NCBI GenBank assembly: GCA_001687465.1 | Contig: LVLI01000044.1 | Coordinates: 1 to 32,291, forward strand | Source: Halocafeteria seosinensis | Lineage: Eukaryota | Direction of reading: 5' to 3' | Length of the DNA: 32,291 bases | In this document: positions 5,884-32,291 of the stretch, one piece after another | Numbering within the stretch: position 1 is the first letter of the stretch | Layout of the letters: the number at the start of each line of letters is the position of its first letter | Notes under the pieces: generated by a model | What the model was told of the DNA's origin: nothing | Database searches by the model: none | Seen by the model: only the letters and a program-made list of their open reading frames with translations | Position numbers and translations under genes: made by a program

Positions 5884-6859
5884 GGTTACAGTACAGTATT
5901 AGGTTGGGAAAAGGGGATGAATCACGCGCTACGTTTCGTTGCCCTTGTTCTTTCTGCCTCAAGTAGTACCGGTAGAGTAGAGTAGTAGTTGTCCGACACC
6001 TTGGTTTGGCTTTGGGAGAAAACCTCAGTTTAATTAACGAGCACCTGTTCCGGTCTCTGGTTTGTTCGTCAATATTGTACTCTACACCACTTCTGTATAA
6101 AAGACCCGCTTTTATTCTTGTTTGAGACGCGAAAGAAGCAGTCAGCAGCTCCTGTAGCTGTATAGAGTAGGGGAAATCTCCTACGCTCTCAACTCGAGAC
6201 GACGATACGTATTGCTACGCTACGTAAACATGGGAATCGTAGAGCGGGACACGGTTCCAAATTAGTGTATTTGTGAATATTTCCAAATAATCTAGTTCAA
6301 CTTCAACATCACACCATTGCTCAAACAATTTCAACACATTCATGAAGTTATGCAATTGCGTTGTTGCAACCGTTGCTCACTTTAACCAAACAGGTGCGAA
6401 CCGCTTCTATACAGTTTACCGGGTTGAATAGCGCTATATCAGCCGAAATATGCAAGCCATGAAGGTAGCAAAGGTAGGAATTTTTTGGAATCATTTGCAA
6501 CCTTACCAACGGACACTGGTATCCTAAATCAAAGATACAGGAAGGGGAATTCACCCCTGATGAGCCCTAAGGATGCATAGGAGTCTGTTGGGAAACTAAA
6601 GCGAGCGGTGAAACGTGATGATGACAGCCAGGAGTAAGGGCGCTGAAAGCTCCCCGTGAAAGCAAACCAGAAGCGCCCGATCTAGAAGCCTTAGGAGGGT
6701 TTGCTAGAAGAGTCTTAGGAAGGACTGATTCTGTTGACGACATAAGACGCAAGTCTGTTTCCTGCAGCTTGCGCTACGGATGTGCAAGGACCGGGCCTAT
6801 AGCCGTGGTGGTGTACAGCCGTATCGTCGGCAGAAAGCCAGCATTGTACACGTAGCACG

Positions 6860-13100: not shown

Positions 13101-16100
13101 ACATTCGATTGCTCCTCAAATGATGGAATACTCTCAATGCGCCCAAAGTTATTTCCTTCCAGTTTCACCAGGTATCCTTCGGTAGGTCCAGTTTCTGGGA
13201 GCACTCGGAAAACAGTTGGAGCCGTGTATGACACTTCGAGCGCTTCATCCACAGAGCTGCTTTGTCCCGCGACGTGGACACGTACTTTTCGAAGGCCACC
13301 CTGTCCTTCCGGGGTGACAATCTCTATGACGGAATGATTAAATTGGGTGATCTCGCCCCCATGTACAAACAAGTCGCCTTCGCGGAATGGGTTCGGTAGC
13401 GTGTATCGGACGTCCTTGTCCGGTCGAGTTGGTTCAAGCGTTACCAGTAGATGGGGAGAACGAGCCTTATTCTGAGGTGCGAAATCAACCCCATCGACTC
13501 CCTCGTTCCCAAAATTGGCACCATATATGGAAACAGACTCTCCTCCCGTTGTACTCCAATCCTTCAACGAGATACTGTGGATTTCCGGATGAGAGTAGCT
13601 GTACCGAACATCGCAACTACTTGGATCACAGTTGGCTTGGTCGTCAACCGTCACAATTACGGGATGATTTACTCCTGCATACTCAGGAGCAATGCAGCTT
13701 ATTTCATCATGCTTTTGCTCAATCACCACGTCGCGGCATTGTCGACGTCCGATGCGAACATTGATTCGATCTTGGAATGACCCGAAATTGGATCCTCGGA
13801 TCGTAACGCGATTCCCACCATTGGTCGGACCACGTGGTGGATCGATATGATCTACCACGGGAGGCTCATAATCAATTCCTAGGTAGTGCGTCAACTGTTG
13901 CCCATCTACATCCATTACAAATTGGTGACCTCTCCCTGTATTTCCTGGTAGATTCAGCGTAGAATACGTGTGATCGAAATCTGTTGAGTCGAATACATGT
14001 GCGTCTGTGGGAACGAACTCGCGACGTGTTCCATCAGCCTTCATTTCAAGGAATGCGTGATCTTCTCCAAAAGGAGTTGTTCCAAAGTTATCACCTTCTA
14101 ACATGACTTCGCCACCTGTTGTAGGCACTACTATGCGTTTATCGAATTTTGGACGGGGACTGTGCTGGCGGAAATTATTCCCGCGGCCGAAAAACTCTGC
14201 AGGTGCAGCGAACAATTCGGAAACATTCCTCCAAGTCGCTACTTTGTTTCCTTGAGAGTCGACCTTAGCGAACACATCTCGAACCACAGGTGGAGCGTAG
14301 TTCAGAACACAGCTGTCGCTATCAGTTTCCATACCAAGGCGTTCGATCACAATCTGATTGCCGGTCCCTTCACCTGGGGGAACCTCGCATTCTACCTGAC
14401 ATTGCAAGGTAATATTGTTCTCGCCGACCGGTACACAATTGAAGGCACCAGTGTTGTTCCTGCATTCTTTCTCTCCCACCGTTATGCGCAAATCAGCCCC
14501 TTGAATGTCGCGAGCTTCCAAGGTTAAAATTTCTGGTTCGGCCGCTTCGTAACCAGCAGTTCTAAACAGGCGATGTCGATTCTCCTCACATTGGCCAGTG
14601 CTAAATGATGGAAATTCTGGAAGGTAACGTTTACTTGAGGTCTGCCGTTCTGATACGCTAGCACGCACAAACCCTTGACTAAGTGGGATCTCTGCCACCA
14701 CACCATCATGATTCCATGACTTTATGGCGGGTCTCGTGATCCGAAGCCAAGTAGCATTGGTCTCCCATCCAAAAATACCTAGGTCTTCCATCTCTGCGGC
14801 TGCTAACTCAATATTCCTGGTTGCTATATCCTCAGATTTAAGGTTTAGTTCAAGACATCCACATTCCGGGAATGGACCAACTGTAGAGTAGCCGGACGCT
14901 CCTGGACACGAGTCCACATCCAGTGCCACCGTTGCCGGATGACACAGAGAGCTACCGCGTATACTCAATTCCATCATCCGAAGGCGGCCATCCAGTATTT
15001 TAGTCTCCATTGCTCTAATACCATTAATAACAGGAGGGTCGTAAGACAGTCTCACTGTATCAGAGTAATGATCGCCCGTTTCGGTATGAGTAATGATTTG
15101 CAAAGGAATATCCTGACCGTAACCCGCGGGCACTGTGAATACGAAGACTTCCAGTGACCCTTTGAGTTCTGTGGTACCGTTACGACCAGGGACGATTGCC
15201 CTCGTTTGGCGGTTGGGATCATTAAAAAAAGCCATGTCCACGGGAAAAATCTCTTCTCCAAAGATAACTTCGTGAGACGCATGAGGATCATCTAAACCAA
15301 GGTTCCGACCAACCACGCGAATTTGAGCACCACCCGCTGTACTCGTTCGAGCCGATTTTGGATTGGAGCAGTCAGTGGGGATGTGAGATGGTTGTGTGCC
15401 GTCTGGTAGAGGAGTGGGACGAGGTGTATGTTTCTCCATGCACTCTAGTGTGCCGGCCTGGTATCCCCACGAAGGAGATGCCTCACTCACCTGGCCAGCT
15501 ACACTAAGACGCCAGAACAAAGGATTTCCGCTGCCCGGAGGGACAGTACATTGAATTTGAGAATGATTTAATACGCGACAATCTCTTGCCTCATATTGAG
15601 TTGGTACACCAGCCATATCCGGGCCGAAACGTACCCACTCCAAGTTGGCTATCCCAGTTTCTTGGGGGCCAAAGTTACTGCCAATAATGAGTATCTCTTG
15701 CCCACCATCCGTAAGTGCATCAACAGCCCCTGGACCACCGAAGTTAGTGATCGAAGGACGAGCGTACCGTGTAACTGGAGGAATAGAAGATTGTCCGTCC
15801 ACCGTAATGTTCCAAATCATGTCGGAGCCAGCGCCCGGCGGCAACGCGCATTCAAGTAAAATATGGGGAGTCTTCACCTTACAGTCGGCTTCAAAGATAG
15901 GGGAGATCGTATCCAGAGCTGTATCCTTTACATCGTTATCCGCATTCAAAGCATCCGACCGAACGAAAGTTGCCTGGTCAACATTACCAGGTGGACCGAA
16001 CATCGAACCATGCACCAATACTTCGTCTCCTTCAGTGTCCAAATGATTAGCGCCTGCAGGACCACCTTCCACTGCTTCATAGAATGAAACTATTGGAGGC

Positions 16101-19100
16101 GAATAACTCGTATTGAATACTAGTGGCATGGGATGTCCTACGTGAGGTTGCCCGCCAACCCACACATTCCACTGAAGGTCTTTTCCGGTCCCTTCCACCG
16201 TTTCACAGCGAATAGATTCGTGGGGCACAGACACCTTACACTTCGCCGCCGTATATCGACTGGAGTCATCCAGAGGGCCGTAGGTCACTTTCAATAGCTT
16301 ATCACCATACATATCGGAAATATCGTCAGAGAACATTGCGGATGATGGACCCATATTGATGCCGTTCAGGGTTATTCGTTCTCCTCCACGAGTATCGGCC
16401 TGTAACGTGCCTTCACCCTCAATGTTAGGAACAAGAGGAAACGCGTAATGGGTCGTGATATCCTGTGACACTTTCAGGTCGCTGATTGTATTGCCCGTGT
16501 GCACGCGCCATAGCAAGCGATTGCCCACGCCCTGCCTTGTCACGCATTCGAGAATAGTGTGAACAGCGATAAACGTGCAGTGTTCCGCTTCATACACGTC
16601 ACCTTCGGAAATCATCTGTAACGATGTTGTATTGATGAGGCTTTCGCCATCTATGCGTTCACCAGGACCAGGGACTCCAAAGTCGTTACCGGTGAGACCA
16701 TCCGTTGATATAACGGGACCGTAGTACACCGCGATTTCTGCAATGTTTTCTCCGAAATTGTCTCCCACTATACGAACCGTCTCTCCTCCCTTCGTCGACA
16801 TTATGGTACCATTCAAGTATATCGAAGAATATTCAGGACGACATATTTCATGAGAAGTCGCGGACACAGAATGGACAATAGGCGGGCCATGCGCTGAGTC
16901 TGCTCTTAAAATGTTGCTAGTCCTTCCTTCAGCAATTACAAGTTTCCAAGCAATACGGTTCCCAATGCCGGGAGAGGTGGTACAATGAACCTTAGTATGA
17001 GGAGATTCATTACTCACATCGCATACTGCCGCTTCAAACTGGAAGGAAACCGAGCCATCGTTGCGACGAGGGCCGTACAAAACAGTCACATCGGTACCAG
17101 CCGGGCCAAAATCAGTTCCTATTAATGTGATGTTTGTCCCTCCAGACGTTAACATGGCCGCATCATTCAGAATTTGGACTAACTCGGGTCTTCGGTACGT
17201 ACTGCGAAGGTTACTCAAATGGGTACTCACCCGATTGCCACCGTACTTGGCCCCGTTATCCTTATAGTCAATCCGAGTTTCCCATACAATATCTTCGCCA
17301 ATGCCTTCCACCGAGCTGCACTGGATTTGGATGTTTCCCAAACTCTGGTGGCAGTCATTCAGCCTGTACTCCGTGCGTTGGATCGTTTCCTTAGACGAAA
17401 CCATGCGTTCTTTCCCTGCCGCCCGTGAGCTCTTGGGCACGTCTACGATTGTCCCGCTACCGCTCCCATTTGGCCCGTACCCAAGCACCACTATCTCCTC
17501 AGAGCCATGGAGTGGATGACTGTCGGCATATCCAAGGTCACGGCCATCGAGCAACAGGACGTTTTCGCCTTCCGAGTCCATGTATCCGTCAGATGAATCG
17601 GATATGTTAACACTATAAATCTTCGAATCTGGTTCATTCAGAGCGAAGATCCAGACGTGAACTACATCACTCAGGTTATGATGGTTCAGAAAGTCATGAT
17701 CCGATACTTCGACAGTTAAATTGTAGGAACTTTGCTTCTCGAAGTCGAGCGATTCCGTTATTCGGATATCTCCGGTTGCCTTCTCAATATAAAATGCGTT
17801 ACCATCATTTCCGCCGACGATTGCCCACCGTTTTATACCCCAGCCATACGAATCCGGAGAATCTTCGTCAGATGCAGGCGCGTACCACAAGCTCATTCTT
17901 CCCCTTCGACTCTGAAACTGACACAGCAAAATCCGGATTCGGCTCAGGAGAAAACACAATCGGCGGATCGTTAACGTCATCCAATTGGATTGTAAATACA
18001 CGGCTGTGCGTCAGTACGGTCACATCACCAGTTGTAGGATGAGGAGGAAGGCCATTATCCGAAACTTGGATCTCAACCTCGAACTTTCCGACCGTCTCGA
18101 AGTTAAGGGAGCACGTAGGGTCTTGGAGATCATCTCGAACGAAAACTTCGCCACTAGTGGCGTTGATAGCAAAGGGGAATTCACCATCACAATCAAGTTC
18201 CGACGGTTGAGGTGTGTAGTCGAGAATATGGAATTTGAACTCCTCACCGGCAACTGCCATGTCTGGATCGTCGACGCGAACACTTGTGACGAATGTCCCT
18301 GGAGCAGAGTTTTCGGGAATGTGTTTTGGAGTGTCCGCATTGGTGATCTCGGGAGATTCATTCACATCTTGAACAATGACAGTAGTGGTGTTTATTGTCC
18401 TCAAATTTCCCGGGCCATCATTGCGTACTTCAATTCTCAGTTCGTACCTGTCCTGAGACTCAAAATCCAGTGTTTGGTCTCGTAACCGGAGCGGGGCAAC
18501 ATTGCGCTTCTTGTTTTCTTCTTCCTCATCGCGCCATTGCACTGAAAACATGCGGGTTCCCTCCGAAGGGGTGGAATCACGAATTGCGAAAGACAACGTC
18601 AACTTATCGTCATGAGTCTCTGCACCAATTGAGTCCAGAATCCGACCATTAGGCCTCAAGTCTTCCGGGACCTCTACTGTTTGAGCTAAAAGGGTAGGTG
18701 GGAAGTTGTTCCCAATGATATCAATGTGCAGTATGCCATATTCAGAGGTGAATCCTGAAGGATCAGTTACGTTGACTAGCATTTCACAGTAGTCCGCAAT
18801 ACCGTCAGAAAGGGCAGGAAGTCTAATATCACCTACGCGAATGGTGGCTTTTCCAGCCTCTTCCTCATGAGAAACAATGAAATATTGACAAGAGTTAGTC
18901 GGACGTTCGACAGAAGCAAATGCAAATGTTAGCTTGTCGGCATCCCCCTCATCGACATCGTCCCCTTGAATAAAGTCTACTCGGGTTCCTGGGAACGCTG
19001 ATTCCCCGATGCTGGTTTGATACTCAACCGTATCGTATGCTGGGAATGCGGGATGCTCATTAACGTCGTTCACTTGAACGGAGATATGTCCGACACTTGA

Positions 19101-22100
19101 CAGGCCCCCGGGGTCGGAGACTCGTATGCTTATTCTGTAGGAAGTTCGGCGCTCAAAGTCTAAAGCACTGCCTAGTCCGGTCCTTGGTTCTCCCGTGCTA
19201 ATATTGATTTGAGTTCGAATGTTTCCATTCGGTTCAATAGCAAATACGTCCTTCCCGAGAGAGCCTTCCTCCATCTCGTACAGCAGGCTAGCAGTGTCAC
19301 CAGGATCTTGGTCCCACCCAAGAATGGGACTGTTCTGGAGNAGGTGATTCCCGCCGGTATTTTCATCCACGTGGAAGACTTGACCGGCAATGAGATTCGG
19401 CGCAGTGTTGACGTTTCGAATCAACACAGTAACCACTGCTTCAGACGAACGAGGTGGACTTCCATCGTCGGACACACGAAGAATCAGTCGATATTCTTTG
19501 CGCGCCGTGTGATTAAATTCGGCACGAGAAAGTATTTGACCAGAATCTTTCTCAATGTCAAACAAGTCCGTGGCCTCCGAATCCTCGCCGGGGCTAAAGT
19601 CACTGGCCCACCCAGCAATGTTATATCTAAGAGTCGGGGGAGTAAAAGGCATCTCCTTCCCAGAAACTGCGCCGGGACCAGTGTCAGGATTCGTGGCATT
19701 CAGCTTCGGATGAACTCGGCTTCCGGAAGGTTCCCTCTCTTTTATCCAAACTTCTTGGTCATCCACGATTGGAGGCTCATTAACGTTATCCAGATCCACA
19801 GTTACTTTTGTAACATCCCGCAGAGCTGGCCATTCCTCTGGCCGTGGAGTACCTTCATCAGATACTTCCACATAAAACACATACCGCGCAATATGCTCGT
19901 AGCCCAGACAAGCTGGACCGAACTCGTTCACTACAATTCGAGCCGTCTCTTGATTTGATCCTTCAGGTTCCACCCGGAATGGGAAAGAGCCAGGATCAGA
20001 CACCGTTTCGGAACCATCGCCATATTCGATGGTTGAATCGCGAATAGTCCAAGAGAATATCGTGCCTACATTTTCATCAGTCGCTGAGACCGTTCCTACC
20101 GTCGTATCTTCCTCTGACATCTCCTTTATTCGGAACATCTTCGACCTGGACTCCGTCTCGGGAAACAAATTGGCCTTCAGTATGTCAACAACAAAATCAC
20201 CCGTATCACTCAGCTTGGAGTCAGTTATTTTAATTGTCAGCGAAAGTTGATGGTCCGATATACTCTCATATGCGATACGGGGAGCGTTGGGCGCAACAGA
20301 TATTGCCCCAGAAAACTGATCGATCTGTAGAAATTTATTAGAATCTTGAGATACAATAGAGTACATGACCTTGTCCGGTGAGTTTGACTCCGCTAGAGCA
20401 TCTGGATCAGCTGCTTCTACAAGTGTGTCGTAGCCACTCCCTAAAACTAAGGGAGTTCCAACAGTGGAGTTTTCAAAAATTGCAAACTTATGTTTTGCAG
20501 GCTCCTTCGTGAAATAGGGAGCCTCGTTTACATCGTTCACATGAATTGTAACAGTTCCAGTGACTTGCTTAGCGGGTTCACCTCGGTCATCCGCAAGTAT
20601 CTCAGCTTCATACATGCGAGTGCGGTTTTCGAAATCAAGGAGACCCGCTCCATCCCGGGAGACGCTTAGTTGGCCTGAGCATGAACCAATGCTAAAGAGG
20701 CTCGAATCCTCCGAGACATCAACAGACAAGATAGAGAAGAGAAGTTCCTGGCCAAACGAGCGAGCAAGCTCGTCCTCATCGAATACTACCAACTCATGAA
20801 GGGGGTTTCCAATCAGAGTAGCCCTTTCGGAGTGTTCGTCCACACTAACAATTGTCAGATCTCCGGACGAGAATGAACTCCGCCACACGGGCTTCTCGTT
20901 TATATTAACAATATTCACTTTGATCGTACAGGTAGCAGAAAATCCATCGGCCTTGGCCTTTACCCGCAATGAATACTGCCGGCATGCTTCGTAGTTAGCG
21001 AACGCGTTGTCCCCAAACCTAATATGGAAGTCATCCCCTTTATCCTCGCCAATGAAGAGCTCCTGTGTGTCAGGGACATGAAACGTATACCACTCCGGAA
21101 TCCCTTCAGTATTGATGCAATGTTCAGCGCTGGAAATATCATCGATGCTGTACTCAACAGGTTTCTCCGATTGACGATTCTTTGCACGCACGTGTACGAT
21201 CGACCCTCCACGGTTGTTTTCTTGGGCTTCAGCGAGAGTACCACCGTCGACTGTGCTTCCCGACGTGGCACAGCCACGTTCCCATTGAATCCGTGGATAT
21301 CTGAATCCATCAATACAGACTTCATTGCTACTACAAGCCCGTTGCCCTTCTCTTTGGGTCTCGGGAGCACCCTCGGGAATCGTGTAATGCCCTCCATCTA
21401 CCTGTTTAATTGAGTTGGTTCCCTTTGGGCAGTAGTACGTGGCCGGGTCTTGCGCCCCTGAAGGAGCGCAGCTACTTGATGTGGCCGAGGAAGAGCCTTC
21501 GCCACAGAAGAATCCAGCCCGGCATCGTCCGGAGCAATCAGATGAAGTCAATCCCCGCTGATTCCCGAACCGTCCTGCCGGACATTGATAGCGTTTTCCT
21601 TCTTGACAATAGTACCCTGCTTCGCACTCCAATTCTTTGGTGCGAGTTTTTTCGCTTGAGCCTCCCACGGTGTAGTATCCATTCGAGACGTGCACAGGAC
21701 TGTCGCTACTTTCGGGGCAGTAGTACTTGGCAGATCCGCACTTTTTCTCCGTTGGACTTGTACTAGCCGGGGGACAATAGTATCCTGCAGCGCACTTGCC
21801 TGCACATGTAGACGAGGTAGATCCCTCCGTGCCATAATACCCTGCTTGGCAACTTTGGCTCGAAGATTGGGGCTTGCGGTTGCCTCCACTACAATAATAC
21901 CCGGCATTGCAGAAGCCTGAGCAGGAGCTGTCACCAAGACCTCGTCGAGCCCCGTAAGTCCCAGGTGGGCATTCTTTCTCGTCAACTCTCGTCGACCCAG
22001 GAGGACAATAATGTCCTTCCAGACAGGAGCCGGAGCATTCAGCGGTGAATAGTCCGGGAGCATCGCCGTAACGGCCTGGGGGGCACTTGACACATTCCGC

Positions 22101-23871
22101 ATCATCTCCGGTTCCTGCTTGGTACGTGCCCGGCATGCATATGTCACATTCACCATTCACTTCGGTTGACCCAATAGGGCACGAGTCATAATATGAAAAC
22201 GCATTCGTCATTTCTCTCCATAGTCCACAGTTCGCGAGGTTAGAAACCTCGATTTCGACATTATTGGTCCCAGGGTCAGAGTTCTTGGTCAAAGTGGCCT
22301 TCTCCGGTACGACGCAAATGACATGGCTACTGGTAACATAAATTGCTCTTCGGTTGACCCACTCAGAACCACCTTGGCCTCGTAAACGGAATCTACAGGC
22401 AAGGGCTGCACTCAGCTTAAAGTTGCTGCCAAATACATTCATCGTTGTTTGTGCGTCCTTCTGTCCCTGTTGAGGAGACACACTGTTCACATTGGGCAGT
22501 TCTTCGGAATCTGGTACAAACAGTTCTACAGTTTCCGGGGATGAAGTACCCTCGTTATCTTGAGCAGTTATGCTCATTTGGTGAACACCATCTTGATTGG
22601 CCGTAGACTCCCAGCTAAACTCATACTGAACAGGATTGCTGCCAGAAGATACCTGTGTAAACGTTGAACCACTGGGTCTACCAGCAGTCTGGAGCTTTAC
22701 ACTATGACACGGCTCTTCGTTGTCTTCAGCGGTGACTAAAAAACTCTCCCTCGTCCCGGGAAGAAAACACTGAGGTAAGGTATCATCAATCCATGGGGAC
22801 GGGGATTTAAATGTTGGCGGGTGATTACCCACACAGGAGCAGCCACTGCCACAGTCGTGATCGTTGAAGCATGCTTTGCCACAATCATTGCAGTTACTTC
22901 CTCCACTGCAAATGTCAGCCCGTGGTACTATTCGCAAGATGAAGTCGATACCAACTTTGGAGTAACCATCTGATACAATGACATTTGTATACCACAGTTC
23001 TTGGTCATTCCCTCCAAGAGATGGGGGATTCCAAGTCATTTTCCCGCTTCCTTCGTCAATGGAAATTCCAGGAGGATGGTGCCCGGTGCCGGTTTCTACC
23101 ATTTCGTCGCTCTCAGCAAGTCGAAATGTTAAGGGATCCATATCATCATCGCTAGCATCGACAAAAAAATTATTTTCCTCTCCCTCGGTAACGGCAATGA
23201 TGGGCATCATAGAGGAGGCCGGAGGGCGGTTTACCATATTGATGTCGCTGCGGTGAGAAAGGTCAATATCGGCAATCAGACGCCAAGAGGATGACCCACT
23301 ATTTTGGATAGCCCCGATGCGACAGCACGACTCGAAACGCCATCGATAGGGATCCCCGTTGTTGGTTTTGGCAGGATAGCGGTGCTTTGTCTGAGCTTCC
23401 CCGTCAAACCAGTCTTCATCTTCGTCGATGGAGTTGATGTTCAAGGGCGGCATTCGCTCTCTGTCTCCATCGCCATAGTAGAAGCAGCAGTAGTCTCCAT
23501 CTTTTTCACCTATTTTGGGCCGATGGAAAAACGACCACCGCCTGCATCCACAACACGCAAAGGAAAGCCATTTATAACAAGGTACTCTGATGTGCCAGCA
23601 GCGGGACTCACGAATCAACTTACCAGCCAATGCTAAACGTAAACCGCACGGTATTAGGGTGGTGGTCATTCGGCTGGTATCTCCACGTGACAACCCCATA
23701 GCGATAGTGCGACGCCTTCACTGCGTCCAATAGAAAGCTCAAGCCTACTATCGTAGACGCCATAAATGGCAAAGAACGACTCTTTCTCTTCCTCCTGCCG
23801 TGAGCCCGCTGCCGCTGGGCAATGCCAGCTGTCTCACCATAGAAAGAAGCACCCATTGCTCTGCTTTTCAT
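10163..23871 (-). CDS. Giant cadherin / IPT-TIG / Cys-rich cell-surface protein with nine TM helices (nonagonal-cadherin-like), ~4,500 aa
   Basis: Joined from exon 1 (start ATG at 23871, 23856 or 23763, to 23624; signal-like MASTIVGLSFLLDAVKA-SHYRYG), intron 23623..23542, ORF 17868..23699 and ORF 10163..18001, with a frameshift at ~17880. It has cadherin motifs (LDFE, DxD, DVNExP), CPxGxYC repeats, G.NFG IPT/TIG repeats and nine hydrophobic helices near the C-terminus. The start codon is uncertain and small in-frame introns cannot be excluded. Confidence 0.85.
10715..12005 (-). other. Nine-pass transmembrane region of the giant gene
   Basis: Hydrophobic segments begin AWVFVVLF, ISFVTIGVDYFQ, WFATMLLP, ILIGVFFL, LFPFAILF, WYWILLII, FQLAVALV, VESVLLAS and ALAIAIGI. 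Counted by eye. Confidence 0.7.
17630..21250 (-). repeat. About 10 tandem cadherin repeats within the giant gene
   Basis: Repeat-end linkers NINEKP, DVNEAP, KANLFP, NVNEPP, NVNTAP, DVNEHP, GNNFPP, DVNESP, DVNDPP and ALNEPD, plus LDFE/LNFE and DxD calcium-binding motifs. Coordinates approximate. Confidence 0.85.
21310..22190 (-). repeat. Cys-rich CPxGxYC (ephrin-receptor-like / GCC2_GCC3-type) repeat tract within the giant gene
   Basis: CPIGS, CMPGTY, CPPGRYG, CLEGHYC, CPPGTYG, CNAGYYC, CQAGYYG, CAAGYYC, CEAGYYC, CPAGRFG, CRAGFFC. Coordinates approximate. Confidence 0.8.
23542..23623 (-). other. 82-nt GT-AG intron (phase 2) of the giant cadherin gene
   Basis: The minus strand reads GGCTG|gtaagt ... 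ggatgcag|GCGGTGG. Splicing joins ...FTFSIGW to RWSFFHRP in frame. Confidence 0.85.
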
Positions 23872-25071
23872 TCCATCAAGAAAGAATAGAATATATATCC
23901 TGCACAACCACATAATAAAAGTTTAAACTCATGAACATGGTTGTTGGTTGTTTTTTTTTTTTCTGCCTTCTTTGCCCTCCTCAGCTTGAGCTGAGCTGAA
24001 CCCAGCTGAGGAATTCCAGCCGTAGCCGCACATGCTTACGTGTTGAGCGAGAAAAGAAAAAAAGAAAAGAAAAGAAAATACATACCGGTAATTTAATAAA
24101 AACGCACGTCCGTGACTTTTTCTTCAAGCAGAATAGACAGGGAGAAAGAGCACCTACATGTACGTGTAGGCTGACAAGCCATATTCGAGCGCCCTTTATA
24201 CGACGACGCAAAAAAGGAAAACTGGGGGAAGTGAAAAGGGAGTGGAATCTGGGGAGTCGCAGCCCTGGTCGCACGGAGGGAGGCTTCAATGTGAGTCATC
24301 ACGATCTGACGGTTTGCGGCCACTGGGAATCAGTTGTCAGCGGAAAGGAGAGGAATTGAACTGTCTTTTACCTACGATGACAGCAGGGGCGATGCTGTCT
24401 GGATCACGGAACATACTTCCGAAAAGTGTTGGAGGCTTAGGAATTGTAGGGTGGGAGGAACGACCGCGACTGGCTCGGCTTCAAAACATCCCGTTGCAAC
24501 AATACGACACGGTTTAGAGTACAGAAGGACCCCAATTCTGACATGGACGTTTCTACTTTCGTTGTAATCTGCATTGGTGTTGACTTCCTTGGCAAATCCT
24601 CCGGACACGAAAGAGATCGTCGGCACGAACAGCAACAACTTCATGGCCAGAAGGAAAGATAAGGAACAAGGAAGTGAATGGCATGTTTGAGAAGGAGGCA
24701 CCAACTGAAGGCACTAGAAATTCCAGAGGGACAAGTTGCTCGCTCCCTTGTTGCCTCGAAGGAAAGACGATTAACGCCTCACGAACTTTCTGAATTGACC
24801 AGACATCCAAGCGTTAAAGTCAATAGACACGAGCGACGTCGCGATGCATTCCCAATATCCAGTACATTCTCATCTTTTTGTCCCCCGAACGCCACATTAT
24901 GCAATATCATCGTGTTGTTTTTCAACGGACATACCAAACGAGGTTACACGCAAAGGTTGAAGAAGCGTAGCCACGTCTTCCGGTACATCACCAATACATA
25001 CAAGCAGCCTAACCCGACGCCCTCGGGCCCATGGCACACAATCTGGGTGGGTTGTTGCTTGTTTATCTGAG

Positions 25072-25132
25072 GTAAATCCACTCAGCACAGAACACCATAT
25101 ATGCTGGTATTGTTCAACTGTATGCTGCCTAG
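25072..25132 (+). other. Probable 5'UTR intron of the LRR gene
   Basis: ctgag|gtaaat ... tgcctag|. The donor context tatctgaggtaaaNccactcagca is conserved upstream of the third LRR copy (~31642-31665). In-frame stops precede ATG 25149. Confidence 0.45.
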
Positions 25133-25148
25133 ATGAGGAGAATAAAGA

Positions 25149-28100
25149 ATGGCATCGAACAGCAAGAGGGACGCCAGGACGGAAGAAAGAGTGCAGACGT
25201 GGATTCAACGGATTCGACGAAATGATCCAGGGTATAAGGATACAGGATGGGATCTTTATCGGAAGAACTTGGATGACGAAGATGCAAAAGACATAGCAGA
25301 TGCCTTGCGGGAGGGAAAGAATACGACATTGACGAGGATTACTTTAGCAGGGAATCAAATCAGTGCTAAAGGAGCTAAATATTTGGCACATGCATGGCGC
25401 GTCAATAAGACATTGACTGGGATTGATTTAGGACGGAATCAAGTCGGTGATATAGGAGCTCAACATTTGGCGGATGTCTTGCGGGTCAATACGACATTGA
25501 GTGCGATTTGGCTACATGGGAATCAAATCGGTGATATAGGAGCTCAACATTTGGCGGATGTCTTGCGGGTCAATACGACATTGAGTGCGATTTGGCTACA
25601 TGGGAATCAAATCGGTGATAAAGGAGCTCAGCATTTGGCGGATGCCTTGCGGGTCAATACGACATTGACCAGGATTAATTTAGAGCGGAATCAAATTGGT
25701 GCTATGGGAGCTCAAAGTTTGGCGGATGCCTTGCGGCTCAATACGACATTGACTAAGATTTGGTTAGACAGGAATCAAATCGGTGCTACAGGAGCTCAAC
25801 ATTTGGCGGATGCCTTGCGGGTCAATACGACATTGACCTATACTGGTATAAACAACAACCAAATCAAGGATCAATCTCTTACGGACCGGATCAAGCATTT
25901 AGTATTCCAGAGAAACAATGTAAGACCACAACGACAATGTGTTTTGTGGAAACTAGCTTTTTTTTTAGATGAATGCATGAATGAATGAGGAAGGAAGGTC
26001 ACTTGCGACGACATACAGTGTAAACCCGGTCGCGTTTGTCCTTGTGTGGGTGTGGATAGGCGATTATGAACTAATTGTTTGCGATTTTCGTGCGTTTGGG
26101 TTTTGGTTGGCTTGACGTTTCTAGGGCAGTGATTGTGCATTTCCACTGTTGTTAAGCACTGAGCCAATTATTGTCCCTTTATCTTTTTCCTTGGTTTTGC
26201 GGATTGCAGCACGAACCGGAACGAGCCAAACGAGAAGCTGAAGAGATCAGAAAGGAAAGCGAGGAACGACAGCGACATAGTAATTGGATTGGCCTCCACG
26301 TATCAGTACGCATATCTGTACTTGAAGCCATACTGTTCGTTTACGAGATCAACGTCGATTCGTTGGCTTGTTTCGACATGTGAAAACTGCAGAACAGCGA
26401 CCATCGGAGCAAAAGGGACGCCATGAAGGAAGAAAGGGTGCAAACGAGCACTCAAAGGATTCGGCGAAATGATCCAGAGTACACGAGGACGGGAAGTGAC
26501 CTTTGGGGCACGAACCTGGATGATAAAGATGCAAAAGACATAGCAAATGCGTTGCGTGAGGGAAAGAATACAACATTGACATGTATTGATTTAGGAAAGA
26601 ATCAAATCGGTGATACCGGAGCTCAACATTTGGCGGATGCCTTGCGCCTTAATACGAATTTGACTGAGATTAATTTAGGAGCGAATCAAATCGGTGATAC
26701 CGGAGCTCAACGTTTGGCGGATGCCTTGTGGATCAATGCATCATTAACCACGATTCATTTAGGAGGAAATCGTATCGGTGCTGCAGGTGCCCAACGTTTG
26801 GCGGATGCCTTACGGGTCAATACAATATTGACGAAGATGGTTTTAGCAATCAATCAAATCAGTGCTACAGGAGCTCAACATTTGGCGAATGCCTTGCGGG
26901 TCAATACGACATTAACTGAGATTCGTTTAGAAGCCAATGAAATCGATGCTACAGGAGCTCAACATTTAGCGGATGCCTTGCAGGTCAATACGACGTTGAG
27001 GGAGATTGATTTACCAGGGAATCAAATCGGTGATAACGGAGCTCGACATTTGAGGAATGCCTTGCGGGTCAATACGACATTGACTAAGATTGTGTTAGCA
27101 AACAATCGAATCGGTGCCACAGGAGCTCAACATTTGGCGGATGCCTTGCGGGTCAACACGACGTTGACTGAGATTTATTTAGGATTTAACAAAATCGGTA
27201 ACACAGGAGCTCAACATTTGGCGGATTCCTTGCGTTTCAATACGACATTGACTACGATTTGTTTTGGGGAGAATCAAATCCGTGCTATTGGAACACAGCA
27301 TCTGGCGGATGCCTTGCGGGTCAATACGACATTGACCACGATTTGGCTGAATGGAAATCAAATTGATGATACAGGAGCTCGACATTTGGCGGATGCCTTG
27401 GATGGCAACATGACATTGACTGATATTGATATAGACAACAATCCAATCAAGGATCAGTCTCTTAAGGACAGAATCAAGAATTTAGTATACCAGAGAAACA
27501 AGGTAAGACCACACGACTTTCTCCAGCAAACAACGGTTGCGTCTTGTCCAAGCTCGTTCCAGTGGAATGAGACTAGCTCTTTTTGTTGGAGCACACAGCA
27601 ACAAAGTGAATGCATGAATGAGGAACGGAGAAAAGGGTAGGTCGCTGCAACGAAGTAAAGTGTAAAACCGGTCGCATATTTCATTGTGTGCGTGTGTATG
27701 GATCATTAGTGAACTATGTCCTTCTGATTTGTGTGTGTGTTTGGTTGGACTGATGTCTCTAATGCAATGCTTCAGCATTTCCACTGTTAAATTTTAAGTC
27801 GATTCTTGCCCCTTTGTCCTCATTCTTTGGTTTACTGTTTCCAGGCTGAACCCGAGCGAGCAAAGGGAGAAGCTGAAGAGATCAGAAAGACGGAAAGCAG
27901 GGAGCAACAACGACATAGTAATGGCATTGACACTCATGAATCAGATGCAGTAAGTGCGTCTCAGGCGATTATCTTCATGAAAAAGGTCCACGTTGGCTTC
28001 TGCTGTCAACGTGCGTAACCCACAGAAGAGAACGTATGAACCCTTACGAGTGAAGCGTTTGGAAAAGCTGGCAAGGACGGATGATTATGATGGGATCCGG

Positions 28101-28478
28101 AGACTGCGAGGTTCTTTACGATCGGTAGATCTTGCTGGAAACACTGTCTTGCACAAGCTCCTGAAAAGTGCTGACGAAAACGTTCGGGACAAAGCCAGAT
28201 ATTTATTAGTGGTTGAAAACTTGGATTTTGATGTCAACATTCAAAATGACCGCGGAGAAACAGTTCTCCATTTGGCCGTCGGGAAGTCGAATGCTGACAT
28301 TGCTGAAGCTGTTGCCAACAGAGGAGCTAACCCAAATCTCCTCGATAAAAGTGGCAAGCCAGTGCTGTCTTATATTGAGGAGCGAGGGGACGAAGAATTG
28401 TATCGTCGTATCTTTGTCCAACATCGTGACCAGTTCGACATGACTTTAGACAGCAACCAACACACAGTGGTACGGTAG
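25149..28478 (+). CDS. Spliced LRR(7)-linker-LRR(11)-linker-ankyrin protein, ~844 aa (NLRC3/ribonuclease-inhibitor-class LRRs)
   Basis: Exons 25149-25919, 26210-26305, 26393-27502, 27845-27949 and 28026-28478. Donors are gtaaga, gtacgc, gtaaga and gtaagt; acceptors are tgcag, tgcag, tccag and cacag. All four introns are phase 0 and the joined frame is open. The repeat consensus is GAQHLADALRVNTTLTxIxLxxNQI. The last exon has ankyrin motifs GNTVLH and GETVLHLAV. Confidence 0.75.
25290..25865 (+). repeat. 84-bp tandem array, 7 LRR units (first LRR exon)
   Basis: Period-84 unit ggagctcaacatttggcggatgccttgcgggtcaatacgacattgac...aatcaaatcggtg. 25444-25620 is an exact period-84 duplication. Confidence 0.95.
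26535..27450 (+). repeat. 84-bp tandem array, 11 LRR units (second LRR exon)
   Basis: Same unit as the first array. Beta-strand variants are TCIDLGK, TEINLGA, TTIHLGG, TKMVLAI, TEIRLEA, REIDLPG, TKIVLAN, TEIYLGF, TTICFGE, TTIWLNG and TDIDIDN. Confidence 0.95.
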
Positions 28479-28628
28479 CTAAACACGATATGAATCCTAC
28501 AACAGTACTGTACATATATATATGTGTATTTGATGTTTTCGTCTCTAAACGAAATTAGAATAGCCGGCCAGGGACAATCACTACTAACGTGACACGTTTG
28601 GTGGGCCAAAGGAGGGACTTCCACCAAA

Positions 28629-28697
28629 CGTCGCACTGGTGCACCAAGTTATCCACCCAAAGGCTTTGGGTGGATAACTTGGTGCACCAGTGCGACG
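28629..28697. repeat. Perfect 69-bp palindrome (34-bp arms, 1-nt spacer)
   Basis: cgtcgcactggtgcaccaagttatccacccaaag-g-ctttgggtggataacttggtgcaccagtgcgacg. The arms are exact reverse complements. Confidence 0.97.
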
Positions 28698-28788
28698 GAA
28701 CAGAGAAACGCCTGTCTGCCGCGGGTCGTTGGGACACCAACAGTGAGTGTCTTTTTTTTTCTTCTCTCTCTTTGTTGGCATATAAACG

Positions 28789-30672
28789 ATGGAGGGACTT
28801 GTCGTGAGTGCCCTCGATGGGGTAAGAAAGCTGTATAATGCATTCAAAGACTATAAAGTGGCGGCCTCGGAAGCCGAGGATCTCGCCCACCGCCTCTCCA
28901 TGCTGGATTCCATGCTTCAAAGAGTACCCACAGACGACGACTCGATCCGCACGCCATTGGAGCGGGTCGCTCAGACAGTGGACAACAGCTATAGTGCTAT
29001 CATGGAACGTCTGCAACCGAAAAAGGGGATATGGAGAAAAGTCAAAGAATTGGCGTCCTCGGCCGCGGATCGCCAAGCGTTCAGCAAGATAGCATGGGAG
29101 ATTTTCCACGCCACTTCGGATCTTAATATGGCACTCACTTTGGACAACAGGCATGACCTACGCCGCATTCGTGAAATCTTGGAAAATAAGGAATTGATTA
29201 ACGAGCAAATGGTGAAGCAGTTCCTTGCGCTCGTTGCGGTGAATTACGAGAACGAGCCAATCAATCCGAAGAAAGAAAACGAAAGCGATGATGAAGATAT
29301 GACGTGGGGCATGAGTAGCATTCGGAGGTACTCGTTGGACGACTTAATCTGGGAAGATGGTGAAGGACCAACACGGGATAGTCCTGAGAGGTGTCTCATT
29401 CGGAAGGGTGGCTTCGGATCTGTCTATCGAGCCAAGCTACGCGGTGTTGGCGATGTTGCCGTTAAAAATCTGAACATTGATCCGAATGAATTGAAAGGGA
29501 AACGGTACAAAGAGTTTAAACGGGAATGCGTCCTACTTCATCGGGCTTCGACGAATCCCAACGTTGTGTCGTTCTTCGGAATCGTGAAGACGAAAGACTC
29601 GATCGGCCTAGTGACGGATTTAGCCAAAGGAGGATCCCTATTTGCTGCCATGAATGAAGAAGATCATGAATACTGGTCAGATCTACCCACCGCGCTGAAA
29701 TTGAAAGCGTTGCTTGACCTACTCGTCGCAGTAAATTGGATGCACTCGTTGGGACTGGTCCATGCCGACTTGAAGCCGCAAAACATTCTTCTTGCAGAGG
29801 ACATGAAAGATGCTTCATTCCCACCTAGTCTGTGGGTGAGTGATTTTGGATTGGCCCACACTACACGCACAATTAAGACATCACGAGGCTCAGCCCTTTG
29901 TCCCAAAGGAGAAGGGCCAACAGGTGGCACTTTGGGATTCATGGCTCCCGAAACGCTCTCGAGGTCGGAAACCACTAAGGAATCGGATATATTCTCGCTT
30001 TCGGTTACGCTTTGGTCCGCACTGAGTGGTGAAGAACCCTTTAAAGGCGTTGTGGATGCTCAGCAATATCTACTCCAATTGAAGAATGAAGGACTTCGTC
30101 CGAATTTAGACCAGCTTTCAAGGGACGTTCCTACAAACATAGTTAAAATCCTGCAACAAGGTTGGTCATTCGATGCGGATCAGCGTCCGACTATTGAAAC
30201 TATGCTAAACGAATGGAGTGGTGAAGCCACACAGGCGATCTATGCAACCCTCGGAGCAGTTTACCAGGTAGAAGAAGCTGCGAAAACCCAAGACTTTGCT
30301 CGCGTCCATGATCTCAAGTCGTCTGTCAATGACAGAGACGCTACAGGGAACACAGCGTTGCATCGCCTGATCCAAGCTGGAAATGAAAGCGTGTTCGATG
30401 CTGTGGAGTGGTTACTTATTGACGAAGACTTACCATTTGACGTTGACATTCAGAACGAGGAAGGTAAAACTATTCTCCACTTGGCCGTCGAGGGTGCCCA
30501 CGTCGACCTGGCAGATACTATCTGCGCTAGATCCCCCGACCCTACTCTCAAAGATGGGGCTGGTCGATCTGTATCCTCTTTTCTGCAAACCTGTGGAGAA
30601 ACTACGGAACTGTATCAACGGATATACATGGAATATCGGCGAGGAATCTTTGGCCACGAAACGGAGCCATGA
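28789..30672 (+). CDS. Protein kinase (TKL-like, non-RD) with N-terminal MLKL-like helical bundle and C-terminal ankyrin repeats
   Basis: 627-aa ORF. Kinase motifs are RKGGFGSVY, VAVK, FKREC, HADLKPQN, DFG, GTLGFMAPE and SDIFSL. The C-terminus has GNTALH and GKTILHLAV ankyrin motifs. The N-terminal ~125 aa of amphipathic helices end in KGIWRKVKELASSAADRQAFSKIAWEIFHATSDLNMAL, which resembles the MLKL N-terminal domain pattern. That domain call is less certain than the kinase call. Confidence 0.9.
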   Translation: MEGLVVSALDGVRKLYNAFKDYKVAASEAEDLAHRLSMLDSMLQRVPTDDDSIRTPLERVAQTVDNSYSAIMERLQPKKGIWRKVKELASSAADRQAFSKIAWEIFHATSDLNMALTLDNRHDLRRIREILENKELINEQMVKQFLALVAVNYENEPINPKKENESDDEDMTWGMSSIRRYSLDDLIWEDGEGPTRDSPERCLIRKGGFGSVYRAKLRGVGDVAVKNLNIDPNELKGKRYKEFKRECVLLHRASTNPNVVSFFGIVKTKDSIGLVTDLAKGGSLFAAMNEEDHEYWSDLPTALKLKALLDLLVAVNWMHSLGLVHADLKPQNILLAEDMKDASFPPSLWVSDFGLAHTTRTIKTSRGSALCPKGEGPTGGTLGFMAPETLSRSETTKESDIFSLSVTLWSALSGEEPFKGVVDAQQYLLQLKNEGLRPNLDQLSRDVPTNIVKILQQGWSFDADQRPTIETMLNEWSGEATQAIYATLGAVYQVEEAAKTQDFARVHDLKSSVNDRDATGNTALHRLIQAGNESVFDAVEWLLIDEDLPFDVDIQNEEGKTILHLAVEGAHVDLADTICARSPDPTLKDGAGRSVSSFLQTCGETTELYQRIYMEYRRGIFGHETEP

Positions 30673-31083
30673 CACTTTGGTTGGATCTCGGTTGACCGGA
30701 ATAACAAAGGCGATATAAATAGGTACCACCAAGGAAAAACAACTTGCACTAGTCGAACGGATTTACAGGTTCTGCGCGTTTCGAAATTGCATGGTTTACT
30801 ACTCATTGTCGCCCCAGACATACATGTACATCTTTTAAACCAACCTGCAGTTCCTCTGATGGACATCACTTACCTATCCCTGCAAGGATAGTGTCCCTTC
30901 CCTTCGACTATAGTAGTTGTTGGCCTTCTGAACATACTACAGTAGTTATACATGTAGACACAGGAAACTGGTGCTCAGCATCCAGTACAATTGTAGCTGC
31001 AGAAACTCGTTCTTCTAACTCAATCTGTGGAAGTGAGCTCCAGCAGCAACACTTGCAGCGGACTTTGGTTTGACGATAATTCC

Positions 31084-31320
31084 ACCCTGTTGTAAAGTCA
31101 ATACAATACCGGTAGTCACGAGCGAAGTCACGATGCATTCTCTTGTTCCTGTTGAGTTCGTGAGTTCCTGTTGATACAATCTTGGAGAGCTCGCGTTGCT
31201 AGCTAATCGTCGAGAGTCCGATAAGCCCTGGCGGTACTGTAGTACAGTATTCTCAAACATGAGAATGAGGTCTTACTGTTGTACATTGTACAGTACCCTG
31301 TTGTAAAGTCAATACAATAC
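31084..31320. repeat. 26-bp exact direct repeat pair
   Basis: accctgttgtaaagtcaatacaatac at 31084-31109 and 31295-31320. Confidence 0.85.
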
Positions 31321-31639
31321 AATAGTCGCGATGCCTTCTCTTTTTCCAGTTGTACATACCTTTCGTCCCCGGACCGCACTGTGCCTCCCTCAACACACGA
31401 TGACCATGACCATACATTTCGGATGGACTGTGGACATACCAACACAACCATACCATCGCATCCATGGGTTAGTAGCTACCACTGGTACAATACAATACCC
31501 CTACCTACATAACCACACCAAGATTGGCATTTATTTGGTTTACCAAAGAAAAAGACAGTCTGCTTGTTACATGTATACTATACTGGTATGCATCATGCAT
31601 CATGGATAGGGGTTGTTTGCCTGCTTGCTTGCTTTTTTA

Positions 31640-31985
31640 TCTATCTGAGGTAAAGCCACTCAGCATACATACTGTGCATCCATCCATACACTACTACCGG
31701 TACACGGAGATGCTATAGTATACAACAAAGTATACGGTAATAGTGTACTGTACAGTCTACTGTACCTATCTAAAGAAGAAGAAGAAGAGGAAGAATGGCA
31801 TCCAACAGCAGCAAGCCGAGCAGGAAGAAAGAGTGCAGACCAGTATTCAACGGATTCGACGAAATGATCCAGAGTATACGGATACAAGAGGGGATCTTTG
31901 GCACAAGAACTTGGATGACCAAGATGCAAAAGACATAGCAGATGCCTTGCGGGTCAATACGACATGGACTACGATTTATTTAGCA
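31640..31985 (+). pseudogene. Third, truncated copy of the LRR gene 5' end
   Basis: It shares the upstream donor motif, the aagaatggcatc start context and EERVQTSIQRIRRNDPEYTDTRGDLWHKNLDDQDAKDIADALRVNTTWTTIYLA. The ATG (MASNS) is out of frame with EERVQ, and homology stops abruptly at ~31985. Confidence 0.85.
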
Positions 31986-32291
31986 TCAGTTCCCAGGTTG
32001 GTTCTTTGGTCAAATCCGAGCCATATTTCAGGGTGTATTCCTGGTAATTTTCAATTGCTATGCTTTCCCCCTCGGGAACAGCAGCACGTCTAACCAGGAC
32101 TTCTACACGACCTTCAAATACACAGTACACCACTGCGTAACAGACTTTGTTCGTCGCCCCAGCAAAGGCCTCCGTCACTTCGCCCTCGTCATTTTGCACT
32201 AGCTTTGTTGCTTGCAACCAAGCCGCGTATAGTGCGGCTTCAGCCCTGTTAGAGTCAATGGAGTCTGTAACTCGCTTCAATTCAATCGCAG
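31969..32291 (-). CDS. Possible 3' end of an unrelated gene entering from beyond the window
   Basis: A 103-aa protein-like ORF reaching close to the window edge and converging on the LRR truncation point. No motif recognised. Confidence 0.3.
   Translation of the reverse strand, partial: AIELKRVTDSIDSNRAEAALYAAWLQATKLVQNDEGEVTEAFAGATNKVCYAVVYCVFEGRVEVLVRRAAVPEGESIAIENYQEYTLKYGSDLTKEPTWELMLNKS

Follow-up and report, generated by a model that had tools for sequence, protein, structure and literature searches.

A Halocafeteria seosinensis locus in which a leucine-rich-repeat–ankyrin gene adjoins a gene for a RIPK-like kinase with a putative MLKL/HeLo-like helical domain and a paralogous ankyrin module

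Animal MLKL consists of a bundle of four helices at its N-terminus, a two-helix brace and a pseudokinase, and is activated by RIPK3. In plant MLKLs and in wheat MLKL_NTD–kinase proteins of the Pm13 type, a kinase-type domain is likewise joined to an MLKL-like bundle at the N-terminus, and these proteins are reported to work in immunity. According to the account in PMC11476962, proteins that combine a four-helix bundle with a kinase are known in animals, plants and fungi. In the fungal pairs het-S/nwd2 and HELLP/PNT1, as described in PMC12881547 and PMC9815663, a nucleotide-binding leucine-rich-repeat receptor (NLR) adjoins a HeLo or HELL executor, and both have an amyloid signalling motif in common. 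Receptors of the NLR/STAND (signal transduction ATPases with numerous domains) type have a central NACHT or NB-ARC domain. Pairings of leucine-rich repeats (LRRs) with kinases are recorded for unicellular holozoans (PMC6040629), and the direct LRR–kinase pairing of the choanoflagellate 'Kinase TLRs' has been proposed there to make adaptor complexes unnecessary (Richter et al. 2018, PMC6040629). How necroptosis originated is an open question. Here, we describe a locus of Halocafeteria seosinensis, located on contig LVLI01000044.1 (positions 1 to 32,291, referred to as the window), in which an LRR–ankyrin gene (gene B) lies next to a gene for a 627-residue protein. The latter is composed of an N-terminal domain (N-domain) predicted to form an MLKL/HeLo-like helical bundle, a RIPK-like kinase domain of the tyrosine kinase-like (TKL) group and an ankyrin module related to that of gene B.

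Gene coverage was assessed with contigs from four public runs of one study (X1, X2, X3 and X4), for which the kind of run is not on record. X1 is DNA-like, with long contigs and zero GT..AG or CT..AC splice joints, whereas X2–X4 were taken as RNA because their contigs are spliced (the spliced-looking runs); all contigs are unstranded. The genes in the region are eukaryotic and spliced, and the product of the kinase gene is 99% identical to the EukProt transcriptome protein P0003 (record GECG01000640.1). Within gene B, the joint 27500/27843 was found in two of the three spliced-looking runs and the joint 27949/28026 in all three, and neither occurs in X1. The two joints thus unite the LRR, linker and ankyrin exons in one in-frame coding sequence (CDS) of 1638 nt, encoding 545 aa (Table 1).

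A first-pass annotation of this DNA had described an LRR gene that ends in an ankyrin module, situated about 310 bp upstream of and in the same orientation as an open reading frame (ORF) for a helical bundle, a kinase and a paralogous ankyrin module. The spliced contigs establish the former as real, the gene B stop (28478) and the kinase ATG (28789) are indeed separated by 310 bp in a co-oriented arrangement, and the composition of the ORF agrees with the modelled helices and the kinase and ankyrin matches given below. The range 25149–30672 given for this arrangement contains two LRR genes: gene B ends in an ankyrin module as described, but gene A is a separate upstream gene without an ankyrin exon. 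The first-pass annotation had seen no NACHT or NB-ARC domain in the window, and none was detected with Pfam in the LRR–ankyrin protein or the 25 ORFs scanned, a scan that elsewhere in the window covered exons of at least 110 codons.

The kinase domain was assigned to the RIPK type by sequence, profile and Foldseek matches. Its best match in a sequence search of solved structures in the PDB is RIPK1 (E 6.3e-26), with RIPK2 at 2.7e-25; a profile of the kinase family identified RIPK1 (1.4e-37), RIPK3 (1e-32) and TAK1 (4e-32) in the same database. A Foldseek search with the full-length AlphaFold2 model recovered TKL kinases only, with RIPK1 as the top match (E 6.1e-13); the model has a mean pLDDT (predicted local distance difference test score) of 59, at which the packing of the domains is not readable. 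All catalytic motifs are kept (KGGFGSV; VAVK, residues 223–226; HADLKPQN, residues 325–332; DFG, 352; APE, 386), and the catalytic loop is of the non-RD kind (HAD). Judged by these motifs, the kinase is predicted to be active. Since they are intact, it is not an MLKL-like pseudokinase, and the protein is thus not MLKL proper. The RHIM tetrad [IV]Q[IVLC]G was not found in the 627-aa protein, nor did Pfam detect a death domain or CARD in it.

The C-terminal ankyrin module of the kinase protein and that of gene B share 39% identity over 127 aa (BLASTP, E 9e-36). The similarity extends past the repeat consensus into the flanks (ELYRRIF in one module, ELYQRIY in the other), and by sequence the two modules are paralogues. 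Elsewhere in the N-domain family, ankyrin repeats occur only in P0004, whose array is a different, canonical one, so that the shared module is specific to the gene B and kinase neighbours.

Gene B contains ten repeats in an exact 28-residue register, encoded by an 84-bp DNA array at 26567–27434 (10.3 copies). They belong to the ribonuclease inhibitor (RI) type (LRR_6, NLRC3-like; E 4.4e-41). The sixteen repeats of genes A and B together follow the consensus NTTLTxIxLxxNQIGxxGAQHLADALRV, with variation concentrated at positions 6, 8, 10, 11 and 17, i.e. the x positions on the β-strand face. Of the 600 codon pairs compared at these variable positions, 504 show a non-synonymous and 32 a synonymous difference; at the twelve conserved positions, 119 non-synonymous and 232 synonymous differences were counted among 1440 codon pairs. 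This pattern resembles a diversified ligand-binding face and is also the usual one of any LRR protein. The label 'hypervariable' that had been given to these repeats thus describes a variation that does exist among the repeats and between the paralogues A and B, but one that is normal for any LRR protein and does not establish hypervariability. A multi-copy LRR family is suggested by the DNA-like run X1, where 66 of 181 contigs fit two places and the summed depth over the LRR sequence, which is not a copy number, far exceeds that over the kinase gene. In Capsaspora, related RI-type LRRs are joined to TKL/IRAK kinases (P0136, P0222), and in rotifers their partners are ADP-ribosyltransferases, B-boxes and F-boxes. 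The transcriptome that contains the kinase protein also includes two proteins with the same LRR N-terminal cap, one with a C-terminal U-box (P0184) and one with a tail of ~330 residues that has no recorded Pfam family (P0199). They suggest an LRR sensor family with putatively exchangeable output modules.

The N-domain is probably a distant member of the MLKL/HeLo/CC-R superfamily. Its AlphaFold2 model, built on a 7-sequence alignment, predicts helices at residues 2–24, 27–44, 51–74, 81–90, 92–119 and 124–154, with block pLDDT values of 67–88 over residues 1–120, lower values thereafter and a mean of 67. In the model, these helices form an up-down bundle of four, in which a short helix separates the third from the fourth (h3 and h4), and a long helix comes after the bundle. 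Where MLKL has its brace helices, the model shows a single long helix (124–154; block pLDDT 56–61), followed by a disordered segment (155–182). According to PMC9815663, MLKL and the HeLo-like domains have in common a short helix between h3 and h4; the same account gives TM-scores of 0.51–0.64 for HeLo-like models against MLKL.

Searches with residues 1–200 returned six matches at E ≤ 0.001 among 1,835,955,588 representatives, one of them the protein itself, which makes the N-domain family a very narrow one. P0004, P0005 and P0006 combine the N-domain with a kinase at 32–44% identity, P0006 standing outside the six matches; P0245 is an N-domain paralogue from the same transcriptome as the kinase, P0243 a stand-alone N-domain of 191 aa and P0244 an N-domain with a charged coiled-coil-like tail. 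Since it occurs alone (P0243) or with other C-termini (P0244), the N-domain resembles a portable effector domain. An N-domain profile run against 5.8 billion proteins returned only the paralogue P0245 and thus no bridge to annotated families. Against 177,635 PDB sequences, mouse MLKL was the top of 10 matches, at a non-significant E of 0.33, with a colinear alignment of profile positions 15–153 to MLKL residues 19–158. Among the seven family members, PigL_N (PF17111, formerly Helo_like_N) matched three (best E 4e-5), SesA three (best E 0.01) and MLKL_N (PF22215) one, namely P0243 (E 0.012, residues 13–119 against profile positions 9–115 of 142), each below its gathering cut-off. Helo_like_N and SesA are treated as MLKL-related profiles in PMC9815663. 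In a protein-atlas feature search, the best three clusters scored 0.89, under the lead line of 0.9; those ranked 2 and 3 have MLKL_N in 26–30% of their members and occur most often in Basidiomycota and Oomycota. The plant MADA motif (consensus: 10.1101/693291) was dropped as evidence, as the N-terminus shares M..VS..KL with it only loosely.

The model was also aligned to 48,161 chains with VIA-align. The top ten were made up of five designed and five natural proteins, the latter being the CC-R domain of NRG1.1 (Z 10.8, rmsd 2.7, 100 aligned residues), mouse MLKL (Z 10.5, rmsd 2.5, 95 aligned), Rx-CC and the Sw-5b N-terminal domain (Z 10.0 each) and the N-terminal domain (NTD) of human MLKL (Z 9.8, 109 aligned). 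In a second round, human MLKL (6zz1_B) aligned over 130 residues including the long post-bundle helix (Z 10.9, rmsd 4.6); over both rounds, NRG1.1 CC-R, MLKL and Rx-CC scored ~Z 10–11.5, MLKL by itself Z 9.8–10.9. A Foldseek search with the same model ranked Rx-CC best (E 0.12) and listed the MLKL NTD 6d74 (E 0.47, TM 0.49, normalised by target length).

In its domain order, the 627-aa protein is similar to animal MLKL, as both have an N-terminal helical bundle, a long helix and a kinase fold of the TKL type. Mouse MLKL is the best PDB profile match of the N-domain, and MLKL structures are among its best natural fold matches. It differs in that the catalytic motifs are kept and RIPK1 and RIPK3 are nearest, in the additional C-terminal ankyrin module, in the lack of a separate RIPK3-like activator or RHIM tetrad, and in a bundle whose sequence similarity is not significant. 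The first-pass description as MLKL-like stands for a modelled four-helix bundle with weak superfamily signals, but neither for the kinase, which is no pseudokinase, nor for any significant match. Plant MLKLs and Pm13-type proteins likewise unite a bundle at the N-terminus with a kinase-type domain, and the VIA-align match of AtMLKL3 to the N-domain model spans 143 residues (Z 8.7, rmsd 5.4); an ankyrin tail is not reported for them, and none of the six N-domain matches is a named plant protein. RIPK1, RIPK2 and RIPK3 resemble the kinase in sequence and profile, in the glycine loop (SGGFG in RIPK1, KGGFG here) and in the non-RD loop, whereas their death domain, CARD or RHIM is replaced here by an N-terminal bundle and an ankyrin tail.

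As in the fungal NLR/HeLo pairs, as far as these are described in the sources cited above, gene B would provide a repeat-bearing sensor that adjoins a four-helix-bundle executor with a homotypic element in common. Adjacency and co-orientation were both found, a short shared amyloid motif was not. The element shared here is a folded ankyrin module of ~130 residues, as opposed to a fungal motif of roughly 20 residues; in addition, the putative sensor has no NOD/NTPase domain, and the putative executor carries a kinase. The absence of a central NACHT or NB-ARC domain likewise sets the gene B product apart from NLR/STAND receptors. Capsaspora has LRRs of this RI-type class in direct fusion with a TKL/IRAK kinase, whereas LRRs and kinase are here encoded by neighbouring genes that share the ankyrin module only, and the kinase has a four-helix-bundle-like N-domain. 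The executor half is a variation on an already known kind, since clusters with MLKL_N exist in fungi and oomycetes and four-helix-bundle kinases in plants and fungi. A limited search of the open-access literature (MLKL/HeLo in protists or unicellular organisms; Capsaspora LRR/IRAK) retrieved zero descriptions of a four-helix-bundle–RIPK-like kinase–ankyrin protein or of an LRR–ankyrin partner.

We tentatively propose that the gene B product acts as a sensor or regulator and the kinase protein as an executor of cell death or defence, linked via the shared ankyrin module. We infer the coupling of sensor and executor from adjacency and the shared ankyrin module only. In this scheme, the diversified concave face of the LRRs would bind a foreign or modified self molecule, and the ankyrin tail of gene B would pair with that of the kinase, or compete with it for a partner. 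As a result, the activity or oligomeric state of the kinase would shift, and its autophosphorylation would take the role that RIPK3 has toward MLKL, setting the bundle free for action on membranes. Expression of a dangerous kinase protein would be held low by the antisense transcript described below. A precedent for coupling LRRs to kinases is given by the RI-type LRR–TKL/IRAK fusions of Capsaspora. With similar reserve, the 627-aa protein may be regarded as a self-contained relative of the RIPK3–MLKL pair, in which an active kinase controls a bundle on the same chain, gene B regulates and the antisense RNA damps. A further-reaching version would see in it a one-polypeptide necroptosis machine in a pre-split state, comprising an active RIPK-like kinase and an MLKL-like bundle, with an NTPase-free LRR switch acting through ankyrin and with antisense silencing; this we regard as decidedly improbable.

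If true, the union of an MLKL-like bundle with an intact RIPK-like kinase would offer a testable model for the origin of the RIPK3–MLKL pair and open the question of whether autophosphorylation alone frees a four-helix-bundle executor. Gene B would represent an LRR sensor without an NTPase switch that controls an executor via a shared folded module, in parallel to the amyloid motifs that the partners of each fungal NLR/HeLo pair have in common. If the N-domain is inert, the locus comes down to a TKL kinase specific to its lineage, next to some members of an LRR family that has expanded.

Several observations weigh against the proposed sensor–executor system. No signal of the N-domain is significant singly: residues 1–200 match zero Pfam families in the 627-aa protein itself, the MLKL class included, all matches to MLKL-class families in the relatives remain under their gathering cut-offs, and Foldseek returned zero matches at E ≤ 0.001 with a model derived from 7 sequences at a mean pLDDT of 67. 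In VIA-align, designed bundles reached up to Z 13.4 and the unrelated four-helix bundle of c-Cbl (TKB) Z 10.8, values to be read with the proviso that a Z under ~13 may, for helical bundles, mean a common arrangement only. As generic bundles equal the MLKL-class scores, the homology of the N-domain is probable, not proven. Since the LRR family appears multi-copy, an LRR gene may stand beside any gene by chance, and the ankyrin paralogy could reflect a plain local exon duplication. Finally, sense-strand expression of the kinase is not proven, given unstranded contigs and a gene that is overlapped by a spliced antisense RNA.

The main rival builds on these points and holds that the protein is an ordinary TKL signalling kinase, whose N-terminal helices form a generic regulatory or oligomerisation bundle without membrane activity, that the LRR genes belong to a large dispersed family and are nearby by chance and that the shared ankyrin module is a relic of local exon duplication. 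We consider this a real, if somewhat doubtful, possibility. It would account for the sub-threshold level of every four-helix-bundle signal, the equal performance of unrelated four-helix bundles in VIA-align and the multi-copy appearance of the LRR family. Gene A and the fragment at 31743–31985 point to active local LRR duplication and decay, and RI-type LRRs are found with many unrelated domains. Moreover, the rest of the window is occupied by cadherin/TIG/SIBA-type adhesion gene(s), not defence genes, so that the surroundings do not constitute a defence island. It accounts less well for the convergence of weak signals, obtained by separate methods, on one superfamily (MLKL, HeLo-like, SesA, CC-R) among 24,736 Pfam families and 177,635 PDB sequences, and for the position of the domain at the extreme N-terminus, before a RIPK-like kinase, an arrangement also seen in MLKL-type proteins. 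The 39% identity of the ankyrin modules, which includes the non-repeat flanks, suggests constraint.

Another explanation accepts a true MLKL/HeLo executor that is activated by its own kinase, but independently of gene B, with the two ankyrin tails binding separate partners. That P0005, P0006, P0243 and P0244 have other C-termini or none indicates that the family does not depend on the ankyrin module. On the other hand, this module is common only to the kinase and the gene 310 bp upstream, and LRR–TKL kinase fusions do exist in Capsaspora. We consider such independence unlikely. The sensor–executor system proposed above would make use of precisely this shared module.

Table 1. Positions of the genes, domains, transcripts and repeats described in the text (window coordinates; joints are splice joints in contigs of the runs named)
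Feature	Position	Strand	Description
Plus-strand ORF	25149–25988	+	279 aa; Pfam LRR_6 E 3.5e-22
Plus-strand ORF	26423–27640	+	405 aa; Pfam LRR_6 E 4.4e-41
Plus-strand ORF	27993–28478	+	161 aa; Pfam Ank_5 E 2.9e-9, Ank_2 E 1.7e-7
Plus-strand ORF	28789–30672	+	627 aa; Pfam Pkinase residues 206–474 E 2.8e-38, Ank_2 504–589 E 2.6e-8
Plus-strand ORF	31743–32093	+	116 aa; zero Pfam match
Gene A exon 1	25149–25919	+	N-terminal cap, six 28-residue RI-type repeats, C-terminal cap; Pfam LRR_6 E 3.5e-22
Gene A predicted exon 2	26210–26383	+	Homologous to gene B's charged linker exon; acceptor TTGCAG/CAC
Gene B exon 1	26423–27502	+	360 codons: cap, ten RI-type LRRs of 28 residues each, C-terminal cap; LRR_6 E 4.4e-41
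Gene B intron 1	27503–27844	+	342 nt, GT..AG; joint 27500/27843 (cut +2) in X2, X3
Gene B exon 2	27845–27949	+	105 nt, 35-codon charged linker, in frame, joints on both flanks
Gene B intron 2	27950–28025	+	76 nt, GT..AG; joint 27949/28026 in X2, X3, X4
Gene B exon 3	28026–28478	+	Ankyrin module and stop; Pfam Ank_5 E 2.9e-9, Ank_2 E 1.7e-7
Perfect palindrome	28629–28697		Arms of 34 nt separated by 1 nt; lies within the 310-bp spacer, with the kinase ATG ~90 bp downstream
N-domain	28789–29256	+	Residues 1–156; predicted MLKL/HeLo-like four-helix bundle and further long helix
TKL kinase domain, RIPK-like	29404–30210	+	Residues 206–474; Pfam Pkinase E 2.8e-38
Kinase ankyrin module	30259–30639	+	Residues ~491–617; Pfam Ank_2 504–589
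Spliced antisense transcript	28752–31359	-	Covers the whole kinase CDS; poly(A)-like end ~28752; 5' end undefined
Antisense intron 1	29011–29138	-	CT..AC joint 29010/29139 in 3/3 runs (X2–X4); GTGAGT...TTGCAG
Antisense intron	30377–30433	-	Joint 30376/30434 in 2/3 runs
Antisense intron	30772–30873	-	Joint 30771/30874 in 1/3 runs
Antisense intron	31297–31358	-	Joint 31296/31359 in 1/3 runs
Third LRR copy, degenerate 5' fragment	31743–31985	+	~60 codons; zero Pfam match

The kinase gene is overlapped by a spliced antisense transcript (Table 1). At its poly(A)-like end, which lies shortly before the kinase ATG, an X2 contig ends in 19 extra T before 28752, beside a genomic run of nine T; these T reflect either a minus-strand RNA with a poly(A) tail or priming at the genomic T-run. 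The antisense splice explains the 568-aa 'isoform' P0247, one of four assembled transcripts of the kinase gene: it is the product of a 128-nt skip and consists of 58 out-of-frame residues followed by residues 118–627. The antisense ORFs match zero Pfam families, and Rfam gave zero matches at gathering scores within 24000–32291. Contigs that retain the antisense intron and contigs that lack it were compared for depth in X3 (12.4 vs 10.9), X4 (6.6 vs 4.3) and X2 (37 vs 14.3), whereas intron 1 of gene B in X3 was retained at a depth of 5.6 and spliced at 62.9. As the antisense introns are thus kept as deep or deeper, while gene B intron 1 is rarely kept, a plus-strand kinase mRNA can be inferred. 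Gene B and the kinase gene are both covered in the same spliced-looking runs. That the antisense RNA outweighs the coding gene, as read-through or non-coding RNA from the minus strand over a kinase ORF that is little expressed or decaying, would fit the canonical minus-strand introns in all three spliced-looking runs, the poly(A)-like end at 28752 and the splice in P0247, but is very improbable in view of the intact 627-aa ORF with its nearly identical transcriptome product, the conservation of the kinase protein along its whole length in the relatives and the depth of the intron-retaining contigs.

Gene A, the separate LRR gene upstream of gene B, contains an 84-bp tandem array at 25320–25837 (6.2 copies), and its exon 1 closes at the donor AAT/GTAAGA. 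The translation of its predicted exon 2, HEPERAKREAEEIRK..., reaches a stop and lacks an ankyrin part. This exon is a prediction, as zero RNA splice joints for gene A were present in the contigs of X1–X4. Two neighbouring repeats of gene A, at 25465–25640, have an identical protein sequence (NTTLSAIWLHGNQIGDIGAQHLADVLRV), which points to a very recent internal duplication or conversion inside the 84-bp array.

The LRR copy that had been noted just downstream of the kinase gene does share 87% DNA identity with gene A at its 5' end along 168 bp, but amounts to a degenerate fragment, whose ATG at 31795 is out of frame relative to the conserved EERVQ frame. It stops at 31985/31986, and contigs from all four runs carry other sequence beyond this junction. 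Conversely, contigs covering 31986–32291 differ before 31986 in all four runs, and the depth over this segment ranges from 510 to 1292 across them, as against 63–110 over the kinase gene. The depth jump and the divergence of the contigs identify the join at 31986 as the boundary of a repeat, an insertion or a join made in assembly. The ORF at 31969–32289 on the minus strand, which is open at the window end, matches zero Pfam families.

The palindrome in the spacer between gene B and the kinase gene is unique in the window, with 0 expected by chance, and is flanked by a second inverted repeat (28589–28636). An X1 contig differs at the palindrome (joint 28604/28664), and the spliced-looking runs have next to zero depth across it.

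Farther upstream in the window, the minus strand contains an open frame of 867 codons (3295–5898) with zero Pfam families at E ≤ 0.001. It is followed at 10163–23717 by two long minus-strand ORFs of 2615 and 1949 codons that overlap at 17868–18010 and contain cadherin, IPT/TIG and SIBA-type (integrin-beta-like protein A–E) domains. The two ORFs probably form one giant adhesion gene.

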